From the NCBI GenBank assembly GCA_902607475.1, contig CACLKH010000004.1, forward strand, positions 1 to 61,854: a stretch of 61,854 nt of DNA. The letters are read 5' to 3'. This document shows, one piece after another, positions 43,817-61,854 of the stretch (within the stretch, counting starts at the first letter, position 1; each line of letters starts with the position of its first letter). This stretch comes from an uncultured Alphaproteobacteria bacterium. GTDB taxonomy: Bacteria; Pseudomonadota; Alphaproteobacteria; GCA-002720895. Below the pieces are notes generated by a model. That model was not told the DNA's origin. It made no database searches and was given only the letters and a program-made list of their open reading frames with translations. The position numbers and the translations under genes were made by a program.

Positions 43817-44635
43817 TTAAATTCTCTTTTTTAGATATCCCAACACATCTGTGTTTTTATTTTTATTATTAAATTCTTTCATTTTATTAATGTTGTTTGT
43901 TACGGGGTTAGCTGCACTTGATTTTAAATATCCCAGTACTTCTGTGTTTTTGTTTTTATTATTAAATTCTTTCATTTTATTAATGTTGTTTGTTACGGGA
44001 TTAGCCGCACTTGATTTTAAATATCCCAGTACTTCTGTGTTTTTGTTTTTATTATTAAATTCTTTCATTTTATTAAAATTTTTTTCTAATGGGCTATGAA
44101 TACTAGATAAATTGTTAGCTAAGATGGTTTGATTGGAATTACTTTTATCAAAATTTCTATTATTTAATATATTATGTGCAAGAATTTCACTACCGTGATT
44201 TTTTAAAACTTCTATATTGTTTTTTTTAATACCTTCAACTTTTTTAGCATTTGCTAACATTGAAATTTGTCTAGTACCATGTTTTTGTTCTATTATTGGA
44301 ACTATCGTAGGTTCTGAATTTAAACCCAACATACTTATTTTATTTTTATTTCTATCTTCGTATATCTTAGGTTTAAATTCCTCACATATTTTTTCACGCT
44401 TAGCAACTCTGGTCATCTTGCAATCTTTTCCTAATACAAAAGAAACTGCATGATCTGTTGCTGTTTTATCAGTATAATATTCGGTAAGTAATTCTGTAGT
44501 AGTTTTAGCAAAACTTAACTCTTTAATAGTAGTTGAAGATGTTGTCATCGGTGTTATTAAAGAACAACTTACTATTATTATAATAGCAACTAATAAACAA
44601 ACGCCTTTATACCATTTTATTACTATATCTCCCAT
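43817..44635 (-). CDS. repeat-containing lipoprotein, function unknown
   Basis: 272 aa. Lipobox-like ...IVSCS. The C-terminus carries about 2.6 copies of a 31-aa unit (KMKEFNNKNKNTEVLGYLKSSAANPVTNNIN). Confidence 0.6.
   Translation of the reverse strand: MGDIVIKWYKGVCLLVAIIIIVSCSLITPMTTSSTTIKELSFAKTTTELLTEYYTDKTATDHAVSFVLGKDCKMTRVAKREKICEEFKPKIYEDRNKNKISMLGLNSEPTIVPIIEQKHGTRQISMLANAKKVEGIKKNNIEVLKNHGSEILAHNILNNRNFDKSNSNQTILANNLSSIHSPLEKNFNKMKEFNNKNKNTEVLGYLKSSAANPVTNNINKMKEFNNKNKNTEVLGYLKSSAANPVTNNINKMKEFNNKNKNTDVLGYLKKRI
43835..44080 (-). repeat. 93-bp in-frame tandem repeat, about 2.6 copies
   Basis: Unit starts at 43835, 43928 and 44021 (period exactly 93). Copies differ by a few substitutions only. 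Confidence 0.95.
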
Positions 44636-50022: not shown

Positions 50023-50748
50023 ATGAATACAAATATACTTATCTTACAACACATATCCGTAGAAGATCCGGGTTTTATAAAAGATTTGATGATTAAAGAC
50101 AATTTTAATCTTAAAACTATAAAGCTTTATAAAAAAGAAAAAATTCCAAAAGATTTAAAAAAATACGATGCCATGTTTTCAATGGGAGGGCCTATGGATA
50201 CATGGATGGAAAATAAATATCCATGGTTAAAAAATGAAAAAAAAGCAATACACGAATACGTTGTAAAACTGAAAAAACCATTCCTAGGTTTTTGTCTCGG
50301 CTGTCAATTACTTGGTGAAGTTTTAGGAGGAAAAGTAGAGAGAATGGAAAAATCTGAAATCGGGATTTTAGATCTTTATATGCAAAACGGGTATACCAAA
50401 GATACTTTGTTTCAAAATTTTGATACATCTATTAAAGTTTTACAATGGCATTCTTATCAAGTAAATAACTTAAGTAGTAATGTAGAAATTTTAGCTTCAT
50501 CTGACCTTTGTAAATATCAAGCTTTTCGTTATAAACAACATGCCTATGGCATACAATTTCATTTAGAAACTAAAAATAATACTATTAAAAATTGGGCGTC
50601 CATACCTGAATATAAAAAATCATTAGAAAATAGTCTGGGCATGGGGTCAATAAAAAAACTAGAAAGTGATACTCAAACTCATTTAAACATAATGAATAAA
50701 AATGTTACTTCTATGTACCAAGGATTTAAATCAATAATAAAGAAATGA
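50023..50748 (+). CDS. class I glutamine amidotransferase (GATase1) domain protein
   Basis: ATG at 50023 preferred over TTG at 50020. Nucleophile elbow GFCLGCQLL and the His/Glu pair in QFHLE. Confidence 0.85.
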   Translation: MNTNILILQHISVEDPGFIKDLMIKDNFNLKTIKLYKKEKIPKDLKKYDAMFSMGGPMDTWMENKYPWLKNEKKAIHEYVVKLKKPFLGFCLGCQLLGEVLGGKVERMEKSEIGILDLYMQNGYTKDTLFQNFDTSIKVLQWHSYQVNNLSSNVEILASSDLCKYQAFRYKQHAYGIQFHLETKNNTIKNWASIPEYKKSLENSLGMGSIKKLESDTQTHLNIMNKNVTSMYQGFKSIIKK

Positions 50749-50850
50749 AAAAACTCTTACTCATACTTCTTTTCCTTTTTAAAAAAGTTTTATGTTTATA
50801 AAAAAAATTTTCTTCTTCCATTTTTTATAATTGTATAATGAAATAGTAAT

Positions 50851-51009
50851 ATGGAAATACAGTGTTATAAATGCGGAAAAGATATGGAATGTAATCCGGA
50901 AGGCAAATGTTGGTGTAAGAATCTAAAATTTAAGATTGCTCGAGAAAATATAGAAAAAAATAAAAATTGTTTATGCGAAGATTGCTTAATAAATAATCTC
51001 ACTTCTTGA
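50851..51009 (+). CDS. cysteine-rich CWC-family small protein
   Basis: Not in ORF track (52 aa). MEIQCYKCGKDMECNPEGKCWCKNLKFKIARENIEKNKNCLCEDCLINNLTS has CxxC...CWC...CxCxxC spacing. Confidence 0.6.
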   Translation: MEIQCYKCGKDMECNPEGKCWCKNLKFKIARENIEKNKNCLCEDCLINNLTS

Positions 51010-51065
51010 ATAATTAATAATATTTTTACTTCCAAAATCATGGTTCATAGTGCTATAATTTTGAT

Positions 51066-51359
51066 ATGAAAAAATTTTTTTTAATATTAATAATAAGTTT
51101 TAGTATAACTGCCTGCGAACAGTTATCTAAATCCGACAATGAACTTGTTAAATTTTCTGCTAAGAATTTAGAAGAAAGCTCTCAGGCAGAAGAAAGTTTT
51201 AAAAAATATGGCCAGGTATATTATAATATTCACCTTGGCAGATTGTGTTCTCCTGATGGTAAAGCGGTAAGTCTTATTTGGTTAAACCAAGTTGATCCTA
51301 GTGGTGAAAAAATCACCAAGGATCAGTTAAATGTTTCAAAAGAAAATTGTAAAAAATAA
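51066..51359 (+). CDS. hypothetical lipoprotein
   Basis: 97 aa. Lipobox ...SITAC. Confidence 0.5.
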   Translation: MKKFFLILIISFSITACEQLSKSDNELVKFSAKNLEESSQAEESFKKYGQVYYNIHLGRLCSPDGKAVSLIWLNQVDPSGEKITKDQLNVSKENCKK

Positions 51360-53750: not shown

Positions 53751-53828
53751 AGAAAAAAAGTTAGAAACCTTGAGATTTTTGGTGGAGCTAGACGGGATCG
53801 AACCGACGACCTCTTCACTGTCAGCGAA
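53751..53828 (-). repeat. att-like repeat copy 1: tRNA-Ala 3' fragment (tRNA positions 28-76 at 53780-53828) plus 29 nt of downstream flank
   Basis: Minus strand TTCG-CTGACAG-TGAAG-AGGTC-GTCGG-TTCGATC-CCGTC-TAGCTCC-ACCA. It differs from copies 2 and 3 by one substitution in the anticodon (GGC->GAC). The flank AGAAAAAAAGTTAGAAACCTTGAGATTTTT matches 59641-59669. Confidence 0.85.
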
Positions 53829-53885: not shown

Positions 53886-54170
53886 ATGAATAAAAAACTC
53901 ACTATATTTCTTATTTTAAGTTTTCTTAGTTTACAAACTTTTTCTTTTTGGCATCAAGCTGAATTTAACTTTGAAGAACATGAGCACAATAAAGATGTTT
54001 GTGAAATTTATTTATATTGTGATCAATCAAAAGATAATATGTCTAATGCTGCATTATCGCTGCAAGGACTTGAATATTTTACTTTTGCTTTTGTTTTAGA
54101 AAGAAATTTTCTTACTTATTCAAAAAAATATAGAGTAACTTCGACCCGAGCCCCACCACAATTCTCCTAA
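53886..54170 (+). CDS. small exported His-rich protein (possibly DUF2946-like metal-associated protein)
   Basis: Start moved to MNKKLTIFLILSF... (signal peptide). WHQAEFNFEEHEHNKDVCEIYLYC and C-terminal ...RAPPQFS. The family assignment is tentative. Confidence 0.4.
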   Translation: MNKKLTIFLILSFLSLQTFSFWHQAEFNFEEHEHNKDVCEIYLYCDQSKDNMSNAALSLQGLEYFTFAFVLERNFLTYSKKYRVTSTRAPPQFS

Positions 54171-54257
54171 AACATATTTTTAAATTTTATTAATTTAGTA
54201 CATTGCCCTGTATTTCACAGGTCAATTTACATCTTTTTTTTAAGGAGACAAAAAAAA

Positions 54258-55610
54258 ATGCTTAAAACTAAACTAGCAGCATCTGCCGCCATAATATCTT
54301 TGTTCTTCGGTACTTCTGTATTAGCAGAATCCGATAAGGATATCGATATATTAAGAGCTGAAATCCAAAATATGAAACAGGTCTATGAGAAACGTATTGC
54401 AGATATGGAGGCAAAACTTGTAAGAGTTGAAAAAAAACGTGATCAGGTTTCTGTTTCAACTGGAAAAAAAGTTCCTATAAGATCTAGCCGTAGAATACTT
54501 TCTAATAGTTATAATCCATCAGTTGGATTAATCTTAAATGGAAAATATTCAAATTTTTCATCAGGAAGTTCAGAAATACCAGGCTTTGGCATTGGCGAAG
54601 AAGGAGAGCGCGGAAAGGAAGGGCCTGCAATTGGAGAATCCGAAATGAATTTTTCTGCAAGTGTAGATGATAAATTCTACGGAAGCTTAACATCAGCAAT
54701 TGTACGAGAAGGTGGGTCAGATAAGATAGAGCTAGAAGAAGCTTATTTACAATCCTTACCAGGTTTAGGTTTGCCTAGCGGCTTGAGTTTAAAAGCAGGA
54801 CGTTCTTTATGGACGCTTGGTTATCTTAATGAACATCACGCTCACACTGATGACTTCGCAGATCGTCCACTACCTTATCGTGCGTATCTAAATAAATCAT
54901 TTAATGATGATGGTTTGGCTACATCATATGTTTTGCCAACAAATTTCTATTCAGAGATTGGAGGAGGAATATTTCGTGCAGATGATTTTCCATTTGGCAC
55001 CGGTGATGGTGAAAATACCGCATGGTCTGCCTTTGCTCGTATCGGTGGCGATATAGGAAATAATCAAAACTGGCGTTTAGGCGGTTATTTACTATCTGGA
55101 GAATCTAAAGGTAGTGGTCGAAAAAGTAATGAGGATGCAGTTATATTTAAAGGAGAATCAGATCTTTATGTAACTGATCTACGTTACGTTTGGGCTCCAA
55201 CTGGAAACGCGCGTAATAAAGAAGTTATATTCCAAACTGAATATTTCTGGCGTAGTGAAGATGGAACATATCAAGATACCGAAAATTCTACCGGTATTAT
55301 TAATTTTGATGATTCATCTAGCGGTCTTTATATCCAAGGTGTCTACAAGTTTTTTCCTAGATGGCGCGTTGGCGTTCGTTACAGCAGGTTATTTTCACCT
55401 AATGTTCCTGCAGGATTAGTTGGTAGTAATTTGGATTCTGCAAACTTTGATCCAAGAGCATATGCGACAATGATTGATTGGACAAACAGTGAGTTCAGTC
55501 GTGTTCGTTTACAATATAATCATGAAAAGCTTAAGGACGGACAAACCGATAAACAATTCATGATGCAATATGTTATTAGTATTGGTGCTCATGGTGCACA
55601 CAAATATTAA
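54258..55610 (+). CDS. outer-membrane beta-barrel protein with N-terminal coiled coil (porin-like; metal-uptake context)
   Basis: 450 aa. Signal peptide ...SVLA/ES, heptad-like DIDILRAEIQNMKQVYEKRIADMEAKLVRVE, then alternating beta-strand pattern. Family not named. Confidence 0.5.
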   Translation: MLKTKLAASAAIISLFFGTSVLAESDKDIDILRAEIQNMKQVYEKRIADMEAKLVRVEKKRDQVSVSTGKKVPIRSSRRILSNSYNPSVGLILNGKYSNFSSGSSEIPGFGIGEEGERGKEGPAIGESEMNFSASVDDKFYGSLTSAIVREGGSDKIELEEAYLQSLPGLGLPSGLSLKAGRSLWTLGYLNEHHAHTDDFADRPLPYRAYLNKSFNDDGLATSYVLPTNFYSEIGGGIFRADDFPFGTGDGENTAWSAFARIGGDIGNNQNWRLGGYLLSGESKGSGRKSNEDAVIFKGESDLYVTDLRYVWAPTGNARNKEVIFQTEYFWRSEDGTYQDTENSTGIINFDDSSSGLYIQGVYKFFPRWRVGVRYSRLFSPNVPAGLVGSNLDSANFDPRAYATMIDWTNSEFSRVRLQYNHEKLKDGQTDKQFMMQYVISIGAHGAHKY

Positions 55611-55616
55611 AGTAGC

Positions 55617-56525
55617 ATGATGATGAGATTGTTTAAACTAATATTGATTGGGTTGTTTTGCACAACATCAAATGTAACACATGCAATGGTAAATATTTTT
55701 GCCTGTGAACCGGAGTGGGGAGCTCTTGCAAAAGAAATTGGTGGCAGTAAAGTAAAAATCTTTTCTGCCACCCATGCAAAACAAGATCCCCATTACATTC
55801 GTGCTCGTCCTAGTCTTATTGCTAAAGCTAGGAAAGCTAATATTATTTTTTGTTCTGGTGCTGGTTTGGAAGTAGGATGGTTACCTTTATTATTACAAAA
55901 AGCTGAGTCGAGTGTTCAACCAGGAATGGAGGGCCATTTAATAGCATCCAAATTTGTAAAAGTGTTAGAAAAACCAATAGTGGTTGATCGTACAATGGGA
56001 GACATACATCCAGAAGGAAATCCACATGTACATCTTAATCCTCACAACATTTCTTTAATAGCAAAAGAGTTAACAAAAAGATTGGAATTGATTGATGCAA
56101 CCAATGCATCTTTTTATCGCAATCGTTTCAACAGTTTTGCTTTACGTTGGAAAGAAGCTATTGTTCGATGGGAAAAAAATGCTTCTGATCTTAAAGGAAT
56201 GCAAGTTGTTGTTCATCATAGAACATTTAGTTATTTAATAGACTGGTTAGGACTGATAGAAGTAGCATCTTTAGAATTAAAACCTGGTATTCCTGCTACC
56301 GCATCACATCTAGAAGGATTATTGCAACAATTTAAAACAAAACCTCCCGATGTAATTGTTCGTACACCTTATGAGCCAGGCAATGCTAGTATATGGTTGT
56401 CAGAAAAAATTAATAGTCCGGCAATAGTATTACCCTATACAATTAACGGTGATGTTAGTAGCGTTGACCTTTTTGCATTATTTGAAAATTCTATTAATTT
56501 ATTAAAAGGAGCACTGAATGATTAG
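55617..56525 (+). CDS. ZnuA/TroA-family periplasmic metal-binding protein
   Basis: 302 aa with a signal peptide. HAKQDPHYI..RPS and GDIHPEGNPHVHLNPHN metal-site motifs of cluster A-I substrate-binding proteins. Confidence 0.8.
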   Translation: MMMRLFKLILIGLFCTTSNVTHAMVNIFACEPEWGALAKEIGGSKVKIFSATHAKQDPHYIRARPSLIAKARKANIIFCSGAGLEVGWLPLLLQKAESSVQPGMEGHLIASKFVKVLEKPIVVDRTMGDIHPEGNPHVHLNPHNISLIAKELTKRLELIDATNASFYRNRFNSFALRWKEAIVRWEKNASDLKGMQVVVHHRTFSYLIDWLGLIEVASLELKPGIPATASHLEGLLQQFKTKPPDVIVRTPYEPGNASIWLSEKINSPAIVLPYTINGDVSSVDLFALFENSINLLKGALND

Positions 56526-57279
56526 CAATGAAATGATCTATGTTATCGGTCCTGCATTATTAATTTGCTCTATGATCGTTTTAACCCATGTTCCTTTAGG
56601 AATTGAGGTTTTGAAAAGAGGAATTATTTTTATTGATTTAGCGGTAGCCCAAATTGCTGGTTTAGGATTAATAGCAACAAATTTTTTATTCTATGAGCCT
56701 CATCCCTTGTTACCACAATTAGTAGCATTGACTTGTGCAATTCTTGCTGGGTTATTTTTTCATAAAGTCGAAATAAAGATACCGAAACAGCAAGAAGCAA
56801 TTATTGGAGTAACTTTTATACTTGCAGCATCTTTAGCTATTTTACTATTAGCTGATCATCCTAACGGAGGAGAAGAAATCCGACATTTACTTTCAGGCCA
56901 GATTTTATTTGTTACATGGCAAGATATAGCAAAGCATACACCCATTTATGTTTTAATTCTTGCAGTATGGTTTTTTAAAAAGGAATATCGAAATAATATC
57001 GGTTTCTATTTACTCTTTGCACTAGCTGTTACCTCATCTGTACAGATGGTAGGAATATACGTAGTGTTTGCTAGTCTTATTTTACCTGCATTAGCAGTAA
57101 TAAACATAAGTAATCCATATAAGTTAGGGTGGCTTTGTGGAATTATTTCAGTAATAGCAGGGATTTTTTTAGCAACCTTTTTTGATGCTCCTGCAGGTCC
57201 ATTAATTGTTATAAGTTATGTTCTTACAACTATAATTTTTGTAATTATAACCAAGATGAATAGACAAAAATTAAATTAG
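56518..57279 (+). CDS. ZnuB-like ABC-3 family metal transporter permease
   Basis: 253 aa, about 8 TM. GIIFIDLAVAQIAGLG motif. Overlaps the binding-protein gene by 8 nt. No ATPase gene is adjacent. Confidence 0.75.
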   Translation: MISNEMIYVIGPALLICSMIVLTHVPLGIEVLKRGIIFIDLAVAQIAGLGLIATNFLFYEPHPLLPQLVALTCAILAGLFFHKVEIKIPKQQEAIIGVTFILAASLAILLLADHPNGGEEIRHLLSGQILFVTWQDIAKHTPIYVLILAVWFFKKEYRNNIGFYLLFALAVTSSVQMVGIYVVFASLILPALAVINISNPYKLGWLCGIISVIAGIFLATFFDAPAGPLIVISYVLTTIIFVIITKMNRQKLN

Positions 57280-57371
57280 ATTTTTGGTGGAGCTAGACGG
57301 GATCGAACCGACGACCTCTTCACTGCCAGCGAAGTGCTCATTTAACAAAATTTCAATCTATACTTAGCTTT
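57278..57371 (-). repeat. att-like repeat copy 2: tRNA-Ala(GGC) 3' fragment (positions 22-76 at 57285-57339) plus shared 32-nt non-tRNA arm
   Basis: Minus strand GAGCA-CTTCG-CTGGCAG-TGAAG-AGGTC-GTCGG-TTCGATC-CCGTC-TAGCTCC-ACCA. The 5' side continues as GCTAAGTATAGATTGAAATTTTGTTAAAT, shared with copy 3, and has no D arm or acceptor strand. Confidence 0.85.
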
Positions 57372-57394: not shown

Positions 57395-57424
57395 TGACAA
57401 TAGAGTGACAATTTTTGCTCAAAA
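57395..57424 (+). repeat. arm box A (TGACAAT-agag-TGACAAT-TTTTGCTCAAAA)
   Basis: Direct doublet plus the 17-mer ACAATTTTTGCTCAAAA, which is also found at 59588-59604 and 61834-61850. Confidence 0.8.
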
Positions 57425-57447
57425 ATCACGGATCATGGTGCTAGAAT
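57421..57447 (+). promoter_or_regulatory. flavour-1 element: AAAATCACGGATCATGGTGCTAGAAT (11-mer core plus extended -10)
   Basis: TGcTAGAAT ends 6 nt before the ATG of pilin 1. The same 27-mer is found at 58016-58042 and, reverse-complemented, at 61792-61818. Confidence 0.5.
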
Positions 57448-57453
57448 TATTGT

Positions 57454-57993
57454 ATGAAACAAAAAGGATTCTCATTAATCGAACTTTTGGTCGTGGTTGC
57501 CATCATTGGAATCTTGGCAGCAGTTGGAGTAGTTGCTTATAATGGGTATACGAAAGCTGCAAAAAAAAATATGGTTTTATCAAATCTAAATAAAGTAGTT
57601 AAATTGATACAATCAGAATTGTTAATATGTTCTGTAGGTGGTGAAATGATGCCGTATCTAAAATCATTAAAAAACAACAATATTAAAAATATGTCAAACT
57701 ATAGCTGCGAATACTTTAAAAAAAATGGATATTCTGAAAATCATGTTTGGATTGCAGGGGCAGTTGTGGCTTACCTTCATAGTTATGGACATCTTGATGG
57801 TTTTAGTAATCCTTTTAATAAAGATGATAATGTTAAAAGCGGAATTAATAGTTCTGGTGGTTGTGCAGCAAATGAAGTGGTTTTGGGAAGAGTGCGTTGT
57901 AGTGAAAAACCAGCGGGGGCTTATAAATGTTGTTGCAAATGGGGAGAAGGCGCTAATGATTATACTGAAAAAATTATTCCAAATCCTTTCTAA
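57454..57993 (+). CDS. type IV pilin / pseudopilin (prepilin N-terminal methylation motif), paralogue 1
   Basis: 179 aa. MKQKG/FSLIELLVVVAIIGILAAVGVVAYNGYT class III leader plus hydrophobic helix. Cys-rich variable C-terminal domain. Confidence 0.88.
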   Translation: MKQKGFSLIELLVVVAIIGILAAVGVVAYNGYTKAAKKNMVLSNLNKVVKLIQSELLICSVGGEMMPYLKSLKNNNIKNMSNYSCEYFKKNGYSENHVWIAGAVVAYLHSYGHLDGFSNPFNKDDNVKSGINSSGGCAANEVVLGRVRCSEKPAGAYKCCCKWGEGANDYTEKIIPNPF

Positions 57994-58016
57994 AATTGTC
58001 CACCAATTTTGCATCG

Positions 58017-58042
58017 AAAATCACGGATCATGGTGCTAGAAT
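58017..58042 (+). promoter_or_regulatory. flavour-1 element (11-mer core plus extended -10)
   Basis: AAATCACGGATCATGGTGCTAGAAT. The -10 ends 6 nt before the ATG of pilin 2. Confidence 0.5.
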
Positions 58043-58048
58043 TATTGT

Positions 58049-58558
58049 ATGAAACAAAAAGGGTTTTCATTAATAGAACTTTTAGTAGTTGTTGCTATTA
58101 TTGGAATCCTGGCAGCGGTTGGTGTGGTTGCTTATAATGGATATACGAAAGGTGCAAAAGCTAATGCTACTAAAGCTAATCACAAAGAATTTATAAATTA
58201 CGCATCTTCACTACTTATGAAATGTCATATGGGAGAAACAAAAATTGATTTAATGGTTAATCCTCAAAGCGAAACTCAAAGTTATAACTGCGCAGACTCT
58301 CTTGGAAATTTTCTTGGTCTTTTTCAAACACATTTGTGGAATTATAAAAAAATATCTAATCCTTATAGACCTGATCAACCTGCCTTTAGTTATACTTCAC
58401 CGGGAGGTTTTCTAAAAAGTAGATTGGGATATACAAATATGTGGATTATTGGAGGATCTCCGAGCGCACCGGTTAATGTATCGACAGAATATGAAGAAGG
58501 AAAAACTTTAACAACTACCATAACTATTTGTTTGGCTGGAGGTTGTGATTATCAATAA
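58049..58558 (+). CDS. type IV pilin, paralogue 2
   Basis: 169 aa. Same N-terminal 34 aa as paralogue 1 but with many synonymous differences. Unrelated C-terminal domain ending ...CLAGGCDYQ. Confidence 0.88.
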   Translation: MKQKGFSLIELLVVVAIIGILAAVGVVAYNGYTKGAKANATKANHKEFINYASSLLMKCHMGETKIDLMVNPQSETQSYNCADSLGNFLGLFQTHLWNYKKISNPYRPDQPAFSYTSPGGFLKSRLGYTNMWIIGGSPSAPVNVSTEYEEGKTLTTTITICLAGGCDYQ

Positions 58559-59045
58559 ATCAAAAAAAGGATTTTCATTAATAGAACTTTTGGTCGTGGT
58601 TGCAATCATTGGAATCTTGGCAGCAGTTGGAGTAGTTGCTTATAATGGATATACGAAAGCTGCAAAAAGGAATGCGGTTATTTCTAATTTTAACACTGCT
58701 CTAAGATACATAAAACAAGAAATGATGAAATGCGATATAGGTGCTGGACCTATAAGATTTATGACTAAAGATAATGGTTTAAAAGATTGGGAATGTAGCG
58801 TAGTTAATTCAAATAAAACTAGATTTGATGAATTTACTCAAGGATATTTGGGTCATATAGAATATGGTTTTGGTATGACAAATCCCTATACCGGACTAGA
58901 TATTGGAGGACAAGCAGTGGGCCAAATGCAATTTGGTGAAGATACCGGTTGGTTAATTTTAAGGTCTTGGTATTTAGATAAAAACGATGATAAACAAACT
59001 CTTGAAGTCCTAAGAGTAAATAGCACGCAATATCAAATTCCTTAA
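58545..59045 (+). CDS. type IV pilin, paralogue 3
   Basis: 166 aa. GTG start overlaps the pilin 2 stop. MIINKSKKG/FSLIEL... The N-terminal DNA is almost identical to paralogue 1 over about 95 nt. Confidence 0.85.
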   Translation: MIINKSKKGFSLIELLVVVAIIGILAAVGVVAYNGYTKAAKRNAVISNFNTALRYIKQEMMKCDIGAGPIRFMTKDNGLKDWECSVVNSNKTRFDEFTQGYLGHIEYGFGMTNPYTGLDIGGQAVGQMQFGEDTGWLILRSWYLDKNDDKQTLEVLRVNSTQYQIP

Positions 59046-59051
59046 AAAATT

Positions 59052-59534
59052 ATGCTAAGAAAAAAACAAAAAGGATTTTCCTTGATAGAACTTTTAGTTG
59101 TTGTTGCGATCATTGGAATCTTAGCTGCGGTTGGAGTGGTTGCTTATAATGGGTATACCAATGCAGCAAAAAAAAATACAACTATAACAAATCATAATAA
59201 TGTAGTTAAATTTTTACAAAACCAACTAATTAAGTGTGAACTAGGTGATGCAAATATTGGTGAGGCATTAACTGTCAATGAGCAAGGTAGTAAAAAAACA
59301 TTATATTGCCCAATTGTAGCAAATATCGACACAAAATTTTGGATAGGACATTTTTATTATGAAAATTGGAAAAATAGTTATTATACAAATGAAGAAACTG
59401 TCAAAGATAATTGTAACGACAAAGAAGGGTGCATAGAATTTAAAGCGCCAAACAAAACAACCTTTACTATTAAAAGTTTTTACAAAGAAAATAATATATT
59501 ACAAAGCAAAACTACCACAATAAAAACAAATTAA
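59052..59534 (+). CDS. type IV pilin, paralogue 4
   Basis: 160 aa. MLRKKQKG/FSLIELLVVVAIIGILAAVGVVAYNGYT, with a divergent C-terminal domain. Confidence 0.88.
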   Translation: MLRKKQKGFSLIELLVVVAIIGILAAVGVVAYNGYTNAAKKNTTITNHNNVVKFLQNQLIKCELGDANIGEALTVNEQGSKKTLYCPIVANIDTKFWIGHFYYENWKNSYYTNEETVKDNCNDKEGCIEFKAPNKTTFTIKSFYKENNILQSKTTTIKTN

Positions 59535-59545
59535 ATAAAATAATT

Positions 59546-59567
59546 AATCCCGTATCACGGATCAGGA
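59546..59567 (+). promoter_or_regulatory. flavour-2 element AATCCCGTATCACGGATCAGGA (3' module boundary)
   Basis: Lies 11 nt after the pilin 4 stop. Identical 22-mers, reverse-complemented, are at 59811-59832 and 60969-60990, each just 3' of a minus-strand gene. Confidence 0.45.
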
Positions 59568-59572
59568 ATTTA

Positions 59573-59608
59573 CTGACAATTGACTGACAATTTTTGCTCA
59601 AAACATAG
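59573..59608 (+). repeat. arm box B (CTGACAATT-ga-CTGACAATT-TTTGCTCAAAACATAG)
   Basis: Direct 9-mer doublet. The last 21 nt are identical to the last 21 nt of the window. Confidence 0.8.
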
Positions 59609-59638
59609 TCAATTCATCAACCATGAAAAATTAGCCCT

Positions 59639-59756
59639 GAAGAAAAAACGTTGGAAACATTGAGATTTTTGGTGGAGCTAGACGGGATCGAACCGACGAC
59701 CTCTTCACTGCCAGCGAAGCGCCCATTTATCAAAATTTCAATCTATACTTAGCTTT
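59639..59756 (-). repeat. att-like repeat copy 3: tRNA-Ala(GGC) 3' fragment (positions 22-76 at 59670-59724) with both flanks
   Basis: Shares the CCA-distal flank with copy 1 and the 32-nt non-tRNA arm with copy 2. No 5' acceptor or D arm can be folded. Confidence 0.85.
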
Positions 59757-59778
59757 TTTAAACTAAACAAAAAGTTAC

Positions 59779-59810
59779 GGCACAATTACGACACAATTTT
59801 TCTTAAAAAC
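59779..59810 (+). repeat. arm box C (GGCACAATT-ac-GACACAATT-TTTCTTAAAAAC)
   Basis: Degenerate copy of the doublet-plus-tail structure, about 55 nt right of the tRNA part of copy 3. Confidence 0.7.
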
Positions 59811-59832
59811 TCCTGATCCGTGATACGGGATT
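59811..59832 (-). promoter_or_regulatory. flavour-2 element (reverse complement), overlaps the stop codon of 59831-60607
   Basis: TCCTGATCCGTGATACGGGATT on the + strand. Confidence 0.45.
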
Positions 59833-60607
59833 AACAATAACCAGCAATACAAAGACCTTGGTACATTTGCATGAGGCTATTATGCAAATTTTGTTGTCTC
59901 ATTGCTTCATATTGTTGTATGGCTTGTTGTCTTTGTAATTCTTGCATTGCTCTTTGTTGTTCAGAAACTTGTGATTGATACCTAGAATTTATTTCTGCTC
60001 TTTTTTGAGCATCAATTTGCGCTTGTTGTATTGCTAGCTCTTTAACTTTTAAAATACATTCGCCAAATTTTTCTGTACCTTCTTTGAATCCGTATTTTTT
60101 ACAAGTATTAAAAAAATCTTGATCATTATTAAGATTAATAACATTTTGTGTCTGTTGTTGTTTTAGAACAGGTTGTTTGGTTTGTTTTTTTTCATCAGCA
60201 ACAACAACGCCAGGAAAATGTGTGGGATTTTTTCTAATAAATTCTATAATTTGTTTTTTACTTTGCTCACCTACGTAATAATCACCTTGCATTGTTAAAA
60301 CACAAGCCTGATTAGCTTTTGTTTCTTTTGCTTTTCTGCATTTATCAACTGCGCCTTCATTTGCTGCCTTTTGTGATCTGGAATCTACATATTGCCCATA
60401 TGGATTTTCATGAAACATTCCAGCATAAGGTCCTGTTGTCCATATAGCTCTTGCCTGAGCTCTAAATTTTCCTTTACTCTTACGAAACTTCCATGAATAT
60501 GGGGAGCCTTGATAAGATTCATATACATACTGCAAAGATTTAGCAGAGTGAAATGGAGTTATCATCCAACTAAATAATATAACTAAAAACAAAAGCAAAT
60601 ATTTCAT
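59831..60607 (-). CDS. exported protein with Gln-rich coiled-coil C-terminus, function unknown
   Basis: 258 aa with a signal peptide. N-domain with paired Cys (DKCRKA...ACVLTMQG). CKKYGFKEGTEKFGEC motif. QQAQIDAQKRAE...QQRAMQELQRQQAIQQYEAMRQQ. Ends ...CIAGYC. Confidence 0.5.
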   Translation of the reverse strand: MKYLLLFLVILFSWMITPFHSAKSLQYVYESYQGSPYSWKFRKSKGKFRAQARAIWTTGPYAGMFHENPYGQYVDSRSQKAANEGAVDKCRKAKETKANQACVLTMQGDYYVGEQSKKQIIEFIRKNPTHFPGVVVADEKKQTKQPVLKQQQTQNVINLNNDQDFFNTCKKYGFKEGTEKFGECILKVKELAIQQAQIDAQKRAEINSRYQSQVSEQQRAMQELQRQQAIQQYEAMRQQNLHNSLMQMYQGLCIAGYC

Positions 60608-60656
60608 ATCAAATCATTCAATTCACTATATATTTATGCTATAATAAACATTACAA

Positions 60657-60950
60657 ATGTTAAGGGTTTTTTACATACTCTTTTATTTTGTAATTGTATT
60701 TTTCATTACTGCTAATAAAGAAACACAAGCAGCTTGCACATGCGAGTGTGTTAATGGTAGAAGTGTTCCTATATGTTCTAGTACTATGGATCTTCCACCA
60801 TTTTGTTCACAAATGTGCCCACTTAATCCATCGCAACTTCAACCTCTTGGAAGAAATAATCTACCTCCTTTAGGAACAAGAAATTGTGAATTTATGCAAG
60901 TATACAATCCGGTTACTCATATATATGAATGGAAAAACGTTTGTTACTAA
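60657..60950 (+). CDS. small Cys-rich secreted protein
   Basis: 97 aa. Signal peptide plus 8 Cys (CTCECVNG...PICS...PFCSQMCP...C...VCY). Confidence 0.45.
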   Translation: MLRVFYILFYFVIVFFITANKETQAACTCECVNGRSVPICSSTMDLPPFCSQMCPLNPSQLQPLGRNNLPPLGTRNCEFMQVYNPVTHIYEWKNVCY

Positions 60951-60968
60951 AATAAGTGAACCAATGAT

Positions 60969-60990
60969 TCCTGATCCGTGATACGGGATT
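60969..60990 (-). promoter_or_regulatory. flavour-2 element (reverse complement) between convergent genes
   Basis: TCCTGATCCGTGATACGGGATT, 19 nt 3' of the stop of 61010-61450. Confidence 0.45.
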
Positions 60991-61009
60991 ATTATTTCTT
61001 CTTATAAAA

Positions 61010-61450
61010 TTATCCACCACATAAACGTCTTATATCTCTAATTTGCTCTTTCCAGGAGGATGTAAGTAGTACTTTATGTTTATAATTGTAATATCCCTCA
61101 TGAGCATTTCTATCCCCAGCGGCAAACATCAAAGTAGCTGCTTTTGCTTTCGCATCTATTTGTTTCATTCTATTATTTAGAATATCTATTTGTGATTGAT
61201 GATGATTCAGTTCGTATTTACGAGCCAATTCTTTTTCTCTTTCCCATTCACAATCTGCTTCATCCGTCATAATGGTCATACTGCCTTGATAAGCAACAAT
61301 TTCTATACATTTTTCTGTTCCTGGCTGATCCCCATAAACATATCCAAATAATTCTTTTTTGTAATCCATTACGCTAGTACAAATCTTAGGTAAAGCAAAA
61401 GTTGTATGAACCGGGAAAAGGAGAAGAAGTATGACTAAGAGTTTTTTCAT
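61010..61450 (-). CDS. exported hypothetical protein
   Basis: 146 aa with a signal peptide, 4-5 Cys, and a central coiled-coil-like segment. Its start overlaps the stop of the upstream gene (ATGA). Confidence 0.5.
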   Translation of the reverse strand: MKKLLVILLLLFPVHTTFALPKICTSVMDYKKELFGYVYGDQPGTEKCIEIVAYQGSMTIMTDEADCEWEREKELARKYELNHHQSQIDILNNRMKQIDAKAKAATLMFAAGDRNAHEGYYNYKHKVLLTSSWKEQIRDIRRLCGG

Positions 61451-61785
61451 TTACTTGCGTGACAACTATCCAATTTCCATTCCAAAGATTTGTTTTTATA
61501 GACACCTTTCCCAAGAGTTTTTACGCAACTCTTTACACTTTCATTTTGTTTTTCTAATCTTTCATGTGCATATGAATCTTCATATACACTCTCAGGTGTG
61601 TCATTTTCAGAACTTTTAAAAAAATTATAAAGGAAAGCAATAATTCCGAGAAGGATTATTGCAAAAATATATTCTTTGGGATCTTTCCATGGATTCCAAA
61701 AAGTTCTTGAACCACAATGTGGACATGATTTAGCGCTCTTAGACATTTCTCTATTACAATCTTTGCATTTTATTAAATTTCCCAT
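61447..61785 (-). CDS. zinc-ribbon membrane protein
   Basis: Start moved to MGNLIKCKDCNREMSKSAKSCPHCGS (CxxC...CxxC ribbon) followed by one TM helix. The tracked ORF extension (to 61836) covers the promoter-like element. Confidence 0.55.
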   Translation of the reverse strand: MGNLIKCKDCNREMSKSAKSCPHCGSRTFWNPWKDPKEYIFAIILLGIIAFLYNFFKSSENDTPESVYEDSYAHERLEKQNESVKSCVKTLGKGVYKNKSLEWKLDSCHASK

Positions 61786-61791
61786 ACCAAA

Positions 61792-61818
61792 ATTATAGCA
61801 CCGTGATCCGTGATTTTC
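61792..61818 (-). promoter_or_regulatory. flavour-1 element (minus strand): AAAATCACGGATCACGGTGCTATAAT
   Basis: TGcTATAAT ends 6 nt before the ATG at 61785. Confidence 0.5.
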
Positions 61819-61854
61819 GACACAATTACGACACAATTTTTGCTCAAAACATAG
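61818..61854 (+). repeat. arm box D (CGACACAATT-a-CGACACAATT-TTTGCTCAAAACATAG), truncated by the window end
   Basis: Same architecture as box B, which lies 61 nt before tRNA fragment copy 3. Confidence 0.8.

Follow-up and report, generated by a model that had tools for sequence, protein, structure and literature searches.

Bacteria of the SAR11 type have large flexible gene pools and almost no recognisable mobile elements, and how their genomic islands are built is an open question. tRNA-linked islands without integrases have been noted in SAR11 (PMC11796062), and repeated 3' tRNA fragments beside a complete tRNA are found both in these islands and in tycheposons (10.1101/2020.12.28.424599). 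Putative mobile promoters, in which similar promoters are reused upstream of non-homologous genes, have been described as well (PMC3575422), as have accessory modules of Acinetobacter plasmids with short pdif sites (28 bp, XerC-6-XerD, in alternating inverted orientation; PMC6449649, PMC13141974). Here we describe two short elements, flavour 1 (F1) and flavour 2 (F2), in a 61,854-nt stretch of DNA from an uncultured alphaproteobacterium (contig CACLKH010000004.1 of assembly GCA_902607475.1; this whole stretch is the window). The elements share the 11-mer ATCACGGATCA, which is the common core of a predicted portable promoter (F1) and a gene-end tag (F2) bracketing small modules, and the modules are reshuffled between genomes exactly at these two tags. 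They lie in tRNA-anchored islets of low-GC, Pelagibacter-like marine Alphaproteobacteria. No description of the promoter and tag pair or of the core was found in the papers searched, where the motif strings occurred only in unrelated primers.

The window has a G+C content of 27.5%, and housekeeping genes predominate in it. The 11-mer has six exact matches (57425+, 58020+, 59554+, 59814-, 60972- and 61804-), with an expected number of 0.00 and no match in any of 100 shuffles of the window, and all of them are in the island part, the approximately 50 kb of core genes being free of the 11-mer. An earlier note on this DNA had reported six copies in two flavours and had noticed none elsewhere in the window, and both statements held. 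F1 (26 nt, AAAATCACGGATCAYGGTGCTAKAAT) and F2 (22 nt, AATCCCGTATCACGGATCAGGA) have three copies each (Table 1), the F1 copies before pilins 1 and 2 being identical, but the earlier note had overlooked a fourth, degenerate F1 with three mismatches at 51034-51059+, ahead of a lipoprotein gene starting at 51066. The 11-mer consists of two tandem ATCAYGG heptads, and there are three heptads in F2 (ATCCCGT ATCACGG ATCAGGA). Additional two-mismatch matches in the window scan were mostly shifted registers of the known sites, and these already reveal a 7-nt periodicity in the elements. A DNA-uptake or Chi-like sequence was rejected because the 11-mer is absent from the core genes. A repeat of the miniature inverted-repeat transposable element or repetitive extragenic palindromic type was rejected too: the ends of the junction unit are direct, not inverted, and no copy lies beyond the island part of the 62-kb window.

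F1 is predicted to be a conserved 38-nt sigma-70 promoter with an extended -10. The promoter scan listed copies 2 and 3 (TCGAAA, a 17-nt spacer and TA(G/T)AAT with an upstream TG), and copy 1 has a matching geometry by reading only. Most of the spacer is occupied by the 11-mer. As the ATG is 6 nt past the -10 in all three window copies, with no space for a Shine-Dalgarno sequence, F1 would start leaderless mRNAs. The general layout is variable word(s), AATTTTGCATCGAAA, ATCACGGATCA, YGGTGCTATAAT, 6-8 nt and ATG, and among 29 sites in which the core is followed by the F1 right flank YGGTGCTATAAT (b-type sites) the ATG stands 6-8 nt after the -10 in 21. Over 21 F1 sites from other contigs, none of which was used as fishing bait, the block AATTTTGCATCGAAAATCACGGATCAYGGTGCTATAAT (38 nt) is kept at 80-100% per position before unrelated genes. 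The genes behind F1 include pilins, lipoproteins, zinc-ribbon, DUF2231 and MerT genes and those of a zinc-uptake module, and a unit of approximately 50 nt with the word TGTCCACCAA precedes both pilin 2 (58000-58042) and the first gene of the zinc-uptake module in the related contig L084 (7313-7360). Within the window F1-type promoters are confined to the island part, and the core-gene promoters look different. The suggestion of a portable promoter is thus supported by the scan geometry and by the conserved block before unrelated genes. The claim that F1 sits immediately 5' of three first genes stood in part, since all three copies precede an ATG by 6 nt, but pilin 2 is an internal gene of the pilin islet with a separate F1. 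A mobile promoter is defined as a highly similar promoter before non-homologous genes (PMC3575422), and F1 qualifies with a near-identical stretch of 38-50 nt; here there are additionally a 3' tag sharing the core, tRNA islets, cassette-like arrays and predicted leaderless starts. In orthologues of an F1-driven lipoprotein gene (L044 4960-5012, L055 13739-13800) the -10 and the upstream word are kept, and GCATCGAAA, core and YGG are absent, so the core block acts as an indel of about 23-33 nt in a simpler promoter.

F2 is a tag of 27-37 nt just past, or over, the stop codon of a co-oriented gene, and reads (AAAAAGAAATTC)TAATCCCGT followed by ATCACGGATCA and GGAAT. The window copies agree with this (Table 1), as the earlier note had proposed for three last genes. 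For 23 of 30 sites, a co-oriented frame of at least 40 codons ends no more than 70 nt before F2; no individual assignment was made for the remaining seven, several of which are at the extreme start of a contig. A stop codon (TAA or TGA) lies inside F2 in at least seven contexts. The tag has a conserved upstream extension, AAAAAGAAATTCTAATCCCGT, whether coding or not. The weak likeness of the core to a tRNA T arm that had been pointed out found no support, as a scan listing all Rfam matches up to an E-value of 10 gave no tRNA-like match at F2. Parsing F2 as a tRNA 3'-end-like fragment (T-loop, stem, acceptor strand, A, TCA) also fails, the purine at tRNA position 57 being T, and because a different partial tRNA likeness could be found by eye we treat such parses as pattern-matching.

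We take the shared 11-mer to be a predicted binding site of a single protein, which may act in regulation, as an insulator or in recombination. Heptad operators of the form 5'-WATCACW-3' are known for the ribbon-helix-helix protein omega/ParB of pSM19035 (PMC9499535), and like these F1 and F2 have two to three contiguous 7-bp direct repeats with ATCAC that overlap a promoter: AATCACG GATCAYG directly before GTGCTATAAT in F1, and AATCCCG TATCACG GATCAGG in F2. However, position 7 is G instead of W, there are only two to three repeats, and the organism and the context are unrelated, so the likeness is an analogy of architecture only. The small open reading frames (ORFs) of the modules gave no family match, although no systematic search for a ribbon-helix-helix gene was made. 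Readings of the core as a MerR-type or Fur/Zur-type site or an extracytoplasmic function sigma promoter were dropped on account of a spacer without a dyad and a sequence misfit.

The elements are widespread in marine relatives and show polymorphism at their boundaries, an outcome in line with the earlier note. Metagenomes fished with an exact 19-mer of F2 gave 21 marine contigs, all of them real and many with F1 too, and among three matches in the species representatives of sequenced genomes one was real (L044, a contig of a metagenome-assembled genome, MAG). Loci fished by protein, with a DUF2231 cassette gene and ZnuB as queries, also carry F1 and F2, and the sources of the ZnuB relatives (89-91% identity) assign these to Pelagibacteraceae or MarineAlpha6. 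In scans of viral contigs with F1 and F2 all 42 matches were chance ones in which the motif never extended; the segments X and Y (see below) and the tRNA-Ala 3' half had no match there, and thus a helper element carrying this attP did not come to light. Altogether the census holds 58 distinct contexts from about 50 marine contigs of many samples, most contigs being 1-5 kb. Sorted by the flanks of the core, it has 26 a-core-b sites (F1), 24 c-core-d sites (F2), 3 c-core-b hybrids (F2-left/F1-right), 2 sites with another left flank and d, and 0 a-core-d sites, against which the fishing pattern was biased. The loci of the pilin-1 cluster have pilin operons without internal F1 or F2, with a degenerate F1 only before the first gene. 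A protein search with the 146-aa cargo protein found only itself, and the distant DUF2231 homologues P0007 and P0008 were set aside as they come from high-GC unrelated organisms and lack the motif.

The last 8 kb of the window has three minus-strand tRNA 3' parts (at 53780, 57285 and 59670), while no complete tRNA is present in the window; a complete tRNA-Ala(GGC) in the equivalent place on L054 identifies them. Read on the + strand, each of the last two islets has the order fragment, X, arm, module, arm, Y, the arms being direct repeats of 30-36 nt (families D4 and D11) in which a word of 7-9 nt occurs twice and is followed by AATTTTTGCTCAAAA. In this reading the arms (57395, 59574, 59775 and 61815) and the three tRNA fragments are all +, while the F1...F2 unit flips. 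In islet 1 the module (+) consists of F1, four pilin genes with the second F1 before pilin 2, and F2; in islet 2 the module (-) consists of F1, a zinc-ribbon gene, a 146-aa gene, F2, a 258-aa gene and F2, with a 97-aa ORF (60657-60950) on the opposite strand between the first of these F2 and the 258-aa gene, convergent towards F2 copy 3. Between the two islets Y, fragment and X together with both arms form an attP-like block of about 240 bp, and the order F2-arm-Y-tRNA recurs in L054. The coordinates are given in Table 1.

Table 1. Features of the window that belong to the F1/F2 system (positions in the 61,854-nt stretch).
Feature	Position	Strand	Remark
Degenerate linker and F1 (AAAATCATGGTTCATAGTGCTATAAT) before lipoprotein gene 51066-51359	50988..51059	+	repeat family I1
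tRNA-Ala(GGC) 3' fragment, att remnant, left end of pilin islet	57285..57339	-	three copies in the window; complete gene in L054
Left arm of pilin islet, TGACAAT..TGACAAT then AATTTTTGCTCAAAA	57395..57424	+	D4; like architecture before nearly every F1 elsewhere
F1 copy 1: -35-like TCAAAA, 11-mer in 17-nt spacer, TG, TAGAAT 57442-57447, ATG 57454	57422..57447	+
Type IV pilin-like gene 1	57454..57993	+	Pfam N_methyl, E 2.7e-9
Word TGTCCACCAA, AATTTTGCATCGAAA and F1 copy 2 (58017-58042)	58000..58042	+	50-nt unit also before an unrelated gene in L084
Pilin-like genes 2, 3 and 4 (58049-58558, 58545-59045, 59052-59534)	58049..59534	+	Pfam N_methyl each
F2 copy 1, 11 nt past the stop of pilin 4	59546..59567	+
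Right arm of pilin islet, TGACAAT..TGACAAT AATTTTTGCTCAAAA, then segment Y, not core	59574..59603	+	D4
Y segment, tRNA-Ala 3' fragment (59670-59724), X segment	59604..59774	+	repeat families D2, I9
Left arm of islet 2 (CGGCACAATTA CGACACAATTTTTCTTAAAAAC)	59775..59810	+	D11; arm and F2 junction repeated in MAG contig L044
F2 copy 2, overlaps by 2 nt the stop of the 258-aa gene (59831-60607, -)	59811..59832	-
F2 copy 3, 19 nt past the stop of the 146-aa gene (61010-61450, -)	60969..60990	-
Zinc-ribbon gene, first of the minus-strand module	61447..61785	-	Pfam Zn_Ribbon_1, E 1.8e-4, under curated cutoff
F1 copy 3: TCGAAA-17-TATAAT with TG, ATG 6 nt on	61792..61817	-
Right arm of islet 2 (CGACACAATTA CGACACAATTTTTGCTCAAAAC), into CATAG, the start of Y, at the window end	61815..61850	+	D4/D11

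F1...F2 modules stand directly inside the att-flanking sequences at three tRNAs: tRNA-Ala(GGC) (the window fragments and the complete gene of L054), tRNA-Ser(GCT) (L055, L083 and L095, with F1 about 110 nt past the tRNA) and tRNA-Gly(GCC) (L084, in the order fragment, X, word, F1, two modules, F2, complete tRNA). Islet 1, L054 and L084 have F1 towards X, and islet 2 and the Ser islets have it towards Y. The proposal that the module is an orientation-independent insert inside an att-bounded islet is therefore supported, as it flips between the islets and both orientations recur at the three tRNAs. The islets are bounded by a complete tRNA and repeated 3' tRNA fragments, which is the mark of a tRNA-integrating island element; they are 2.2-3.5 kb, hold cargo only and have neither integrase nor replication module, so they are closer to integrase-less, cis-mobilizable or remnant islets. 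Cis-mobilizable elements are a further type of tRNA-anchored island to which they can be likened. In contrast, a tycheposon proper carries both an integrase and a replication module (10.1101/2020.12.28.424599). SAR11 islands (PMC11796062) are similar in the lack of integrases and in their nutrient- and metal-related cargo, but the descriptions of these islands and of tycheposons lack a promoter/3'-tag pair with a shared core and a collapse into arrays.

The window also has a module of a small ORF, a 450-aa porin-like protein, ZnuA and ZnuB between two tRNA-Ala fragments (53886-57279). This zinc-uptake module occurs with F1 and F2 in a tRNA-Gly islet (L084-L086) and in a tRNA-Ser island (L083/L087 lineage), and the window copy is without F1 and F2. 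Hence the same cargo stands at three tRNA anchors, and the tags are common but not obligatory. At the Ser anchor a block of F2, word, -10 and a pseudo-tRNA-Ser is conserved in six loci. In the alignment of these loci (A1: L050, L051, L055, L056, L061 and L062, e.g. L055 13820-13960 -), F2 is followed by word(s), CCAATTTTATGCTATAAT and the pseudo-tRNA-Ser of about 75 nt, in which the 5' half is replaced and the 3' 25-45 nt match tRNA-Ser(GCT). It gets no ARAGORN call, yet it is conserved at about 80-90%, has a good -10 ahead and might be transcribed.

Comparison between loci showed where the modules are exchanged. In pairwise BLAST the homology blocks repeatedly end 0-7 nt from the core; one alignment (A2) has the 3' end of one DUF2231 gene with F2-left and core before five different right-hand contexts, and another (A3) has one promoter-plus-gene unit behind at least five different upstream arms. 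Three states of the junction between adjacent modules were observed. The usual one is F2, a linker of 40-57 nt and F1, in which the linker is an arm (L049, L070, L063 and L084) or a sequence, LNK, that opens with the last seven codons (..INNLTS*) of a Cys_rich_CWC gene. The full state, F2-arm-Y-fragment-X-arm-F1, is found in L054 and in the window (59546-59832), and the fused state in L067-L069, L047 and L059. The pair DUF2231-MerT has the long junction in L049 and L070 and the fused one, TAATCCCGT-core-TGGTGCTATAAT, in L067, L068 and L069, and the difference is an exact 51-nt indel bounded by two cores. Fused junctions in L047, L058 and L059/L066 join other gene pairs. The cores of one junction are direct repeats, and the heptad number varies, L058 being one heptad short. 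At F2-type sites the core is exact while either flank is replaceable (L073 1017, L067 1369 and L052 2209), and in the window and L054 the arm meets Y or the core precisely at the edge of the core. Within one genome the variant GATTA is common to the F1 copies and missing from the F2 copies, which suggests homogenisation among like elements and not exchange of F1 by F2.

As an explanation we tentatively favour, at somewhat less than an even chance, that F1 and F2 serve as functional ends for the cargo modules of integrase-less tRNA islets and that the joining of the modules is repeat-mediated. F1 would open the module as a transplantable promoter and F2 would close it at or just past the last stop. 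Islets would accrete in tandem at the tRNA, and the junction F2-arm-Y-tRNA fragment-X-arm-F1 would collapse via its nested direct repeats (tRNA fragment, arm and core), so that recombination between two 30-nt arms would give F2-arm-F1 and recombination between two 11-mers the fused F2-left/core/F1-right junction. The outcome would be cassette-like arrays, promoter-gene-tag-promoter-gene-tag, and the conserved F1 and F2 copies may serve as homology patches for module swaps between genomes. The modules would be joined by general recombination or slippage and not by a dedicated enzyme. Slippage classically yields changes such as the loss of 51 nt between 11-nt repeats or a shift in heptad number, and either slippage or homologous recombination involving the direct repeats could also produce the hybrids and the 51-nt indel. 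Several points weigh against this explanation. Both orientations of the module occur, and homologous recombination cannot easily flip a module relative to its arms. The exact core with replaceable flanks and the junctions at the core edge look more like a defined crossover, and 11 nt is very short for RecA-type exchange. F2 has no terminator-like or significant fold that would account for its place at gene 3' ends, and as the metagenome sample of F2 was fished with an exact 19-mer, the invariance of F2 is partly an artefact of collection.

The alternative that competes most closely is that the 11-mer is the core of a dedicated site-specific recombination with lambda-like logic, with the recombinase encoded elsewhere in the genome, which we regard as possible but unlikely. 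The a-core-b sites would then be attL, the c-core-d sites attR, c-core-b the junction of a cassette circle and x-core-d the empty site. The enzyme would integrate cassettes, each with a promoter, between the arms of the att backbones, remove them again and perhaps invert them, much as in an integron but at different sites. A lambda-type system has one identical core in four types of site, pairwise hybrids of two parental ones, and of these the census lacks a-core-d. The way in which the flanks assort around the core in the census agrees with this, as do the hybrid junctions joining different gene pairs, the exact indel bounded by cores, the arm/core and arm/Y junctions at the exact core edge, the two module orientations against fixed arms on three tRNA backbones, and the stop codons inside F2, as in many integron cassettes. 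However, a tblastn search for tyrosine recombinases in the window and about 50 loci, with two queries (the XerD of L062 and a phage-type integrase of L081) on short contigs and with serine recombinases and transposases outside its scope, gave only the XerD of L062. This gene (1424-2326, TIGR02225, 386 bits) is two genes upstream of the F2/pseudo-tRNA-Ser junction, a placement that is probably housekeeping synteny. Circular contigs were not found, nor were a-core-d sites, given the bias of the fishing, and the earlier idea of the core as a second-level recombination site was accordingly left without recombinase gene, circular form or empty site. In addition, the F1 core is exact in 13 of 26 distinct contexts and has 1-2 mismatches in the other 13, drifting independently of the F2 cores, and within the 38-nt block of the 21 F1 sites it is no better conserved than the rest. 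A segment of 51 nt is also too short for loop excision by most recombinases. Because no recombinase other than this XerD, no a-core-d site and no circle was found in the DNA covered, F1 cores drift and the products resemble those of slippage, we place repeat-mediated joining first and a dedicated recombinase second.

We consider it improbable that the cores are arm-type or accessory-protein sites in the attP of the tRNA element, with the link to promoters and gene ends secondary. On the circle they would then lie about 100-150 bp to either side of the tRNA-like core, and the position of F1 and F2 immediately inside the att-proximal arms at both islet ends and three tRNAs, together with a block of about 290 bp (59546-59832) with the tRNA fragment in its centre, would suit such a role. 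Yet the cores flip with the cargo and the arms and the att remnant do not, which makes the duplicated arm words better candidates for arm-type sites; many F2-linker-F1 junctions are conserved without an att remnant, and F1 stands as a promoter unit before genes far from att sites. Even less probable is that F2 is a structured element, whether an intrinsic terminator or an attC- or REP-like hairpin, acting as single-stranded DNA or RNA. By reading, F2 is legible as an imperfect palindrome, ATTCTAATCC(C)GT ATC ACGGATCAGGAAT, and the terminator scan picks its 5-bp stem, though on the antisense strand. But the fold of F2 as RNA or DNA is no better than shuffles (-3 to -7 kcal/mol, z -0.9 to +0.4), an intrinsic terminator would have a stem of only 4 bp and no U tract on the sense strand, and Rfam gives no match to F2; a structured RNA was rejected for both F1 and F2 on the folding and Rfam results, and F2 as an ordinary terminator did not hold up on the same grounds of weak fold and lacking U tract. 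In the L084-L086 lineage AAAGTAAGC stands in place of GGAAT, the right outer half, so the palindrome is not the conserved feature of F2. A chance pattern, or a recent local duplication limited to this genome, has only the two identical F1 copies before pilins 1 and 2 in its favour, and it is refuted, to the point of deserving practically no credence, by an expectation of zero matches and by the spread over the contexts of the census.

The arrays resemble integrons in being small, unrelated and mostly single-gene units with a short repeat between them and stops inside the repeat, shuffled between genomes. Nevertheless they fail every integron-defining feature that was testable here: the search described above found no IntI-like gene with attI and Pc; an attC is an imperfect palindrome of 57-141 nt, folded as single-stranded DNA and with GTTRRRY at the boundary of the cassette, whereas F2 is 27-37 nt, folds as DNA at about -3 kcal/mol and has no GTTRRRY; integron cassettes are promoterless and share one common promoter, whereas each module here has its own F1; and here the junction cores are direct repeats and the arrays are in tRNA-anchored islets. 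The modules with dif sites on Acinetobacter plasmids (PMC6449649, PMC13141974) are likewise accessory modules with short sites, varied order and orientation and no recombinase inside, but F1 and F2 are direct repeats and chromosomal. No dif-like sequence was seen in F1 or F2 by reading against the dif consensus, a comparison made without a formal search.

The elements provide a searchable signature of modules that are packaged with a promoter, stacked at tRNAs and swapped between genomes, with pilins, secreted lipoproteins and zinc- and mercury-related genes as the cargo seen thus far. If the core were the crossover site of an enzyme, this would be a cassette system in a group, the Alphaproteobacteria, for which we know of no reported integron. 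Such a system in Pelagibacter-like members, integron-like in its working but of another build, with an 11-bp heptad core, a promoter for each cassette, a recombinase acting in trans and insertion in either orientation into the att backbones of integrase-less islets at several tRNAs, is a doubtful prospect in our judgement, but if true it would be a two-level mobile architecture assembling the flexible genome of the most abundant marine bacteria. If the core is not a crossover site, the system would still be a clear example from nature of promoters that propagate and of arrays that form as nested repeats collapse. A conserved leaderless promoter could also be an expression part for organisms that are hard to manipulate.

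Some further observations concern the arms and the cargo. The arm words are of 7-10 nt, repeated twice with a period of 11-12 nt, and the same word is in both arms of one islet; those seen are TGACAAT, CGACACAAT, GTAGCAAT, GTTGCAAT, TACTACAC, GCTACAC, GGGCAAC, TGGTGTC, GGTTCAC, GGTCAAC and TGTCCACCAA. Doubled words are also upstream of most F1 sites in L046-L095, and they could be arm-type integrase sites, excision footprints or upstream parts of the promoter. The linker at 50988 opens with the final codons of a Cys_rich_CWC ORF that is intact in the window (50851-51009), directly upstream of the degenerate F1 and the lipoprotein gene, and an sppA-like gene is downstream of the latter. The commonest cassette genes of the metagenomes (L047, L049, L058 and L067-L070) look like a mercury or metal set: MerT-like and MerP-like genes (NCBIfam, under cutoffs), a DUF2231 membrane protein whose 90% cluster comprises 292 sequences, and a small MCPACY.. 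protein. One signal peptide, MKKLL(V/I)ILLLLFPVHGAW, recurs in many cassette proteins that are unrelated to each other (L044 183-2186, L051, L059 and L061), and several of them end in ..KKKF, encoded by the conserved upstream extension of F2. A truncated copy of such a gene start, with no ORF behind it, is at 50745 in the window, and an inverted repeat (I3, 95%) connects 50743-50779 with 61416-61452. Finally, a 272-aa ORF (43817-44635, -) contains a stretch of about 30 residues (..NNINKMKEFNNKNKNTEVLGYLKSSAANPVT..) three times in tandem, with hardly any difference between the copies.

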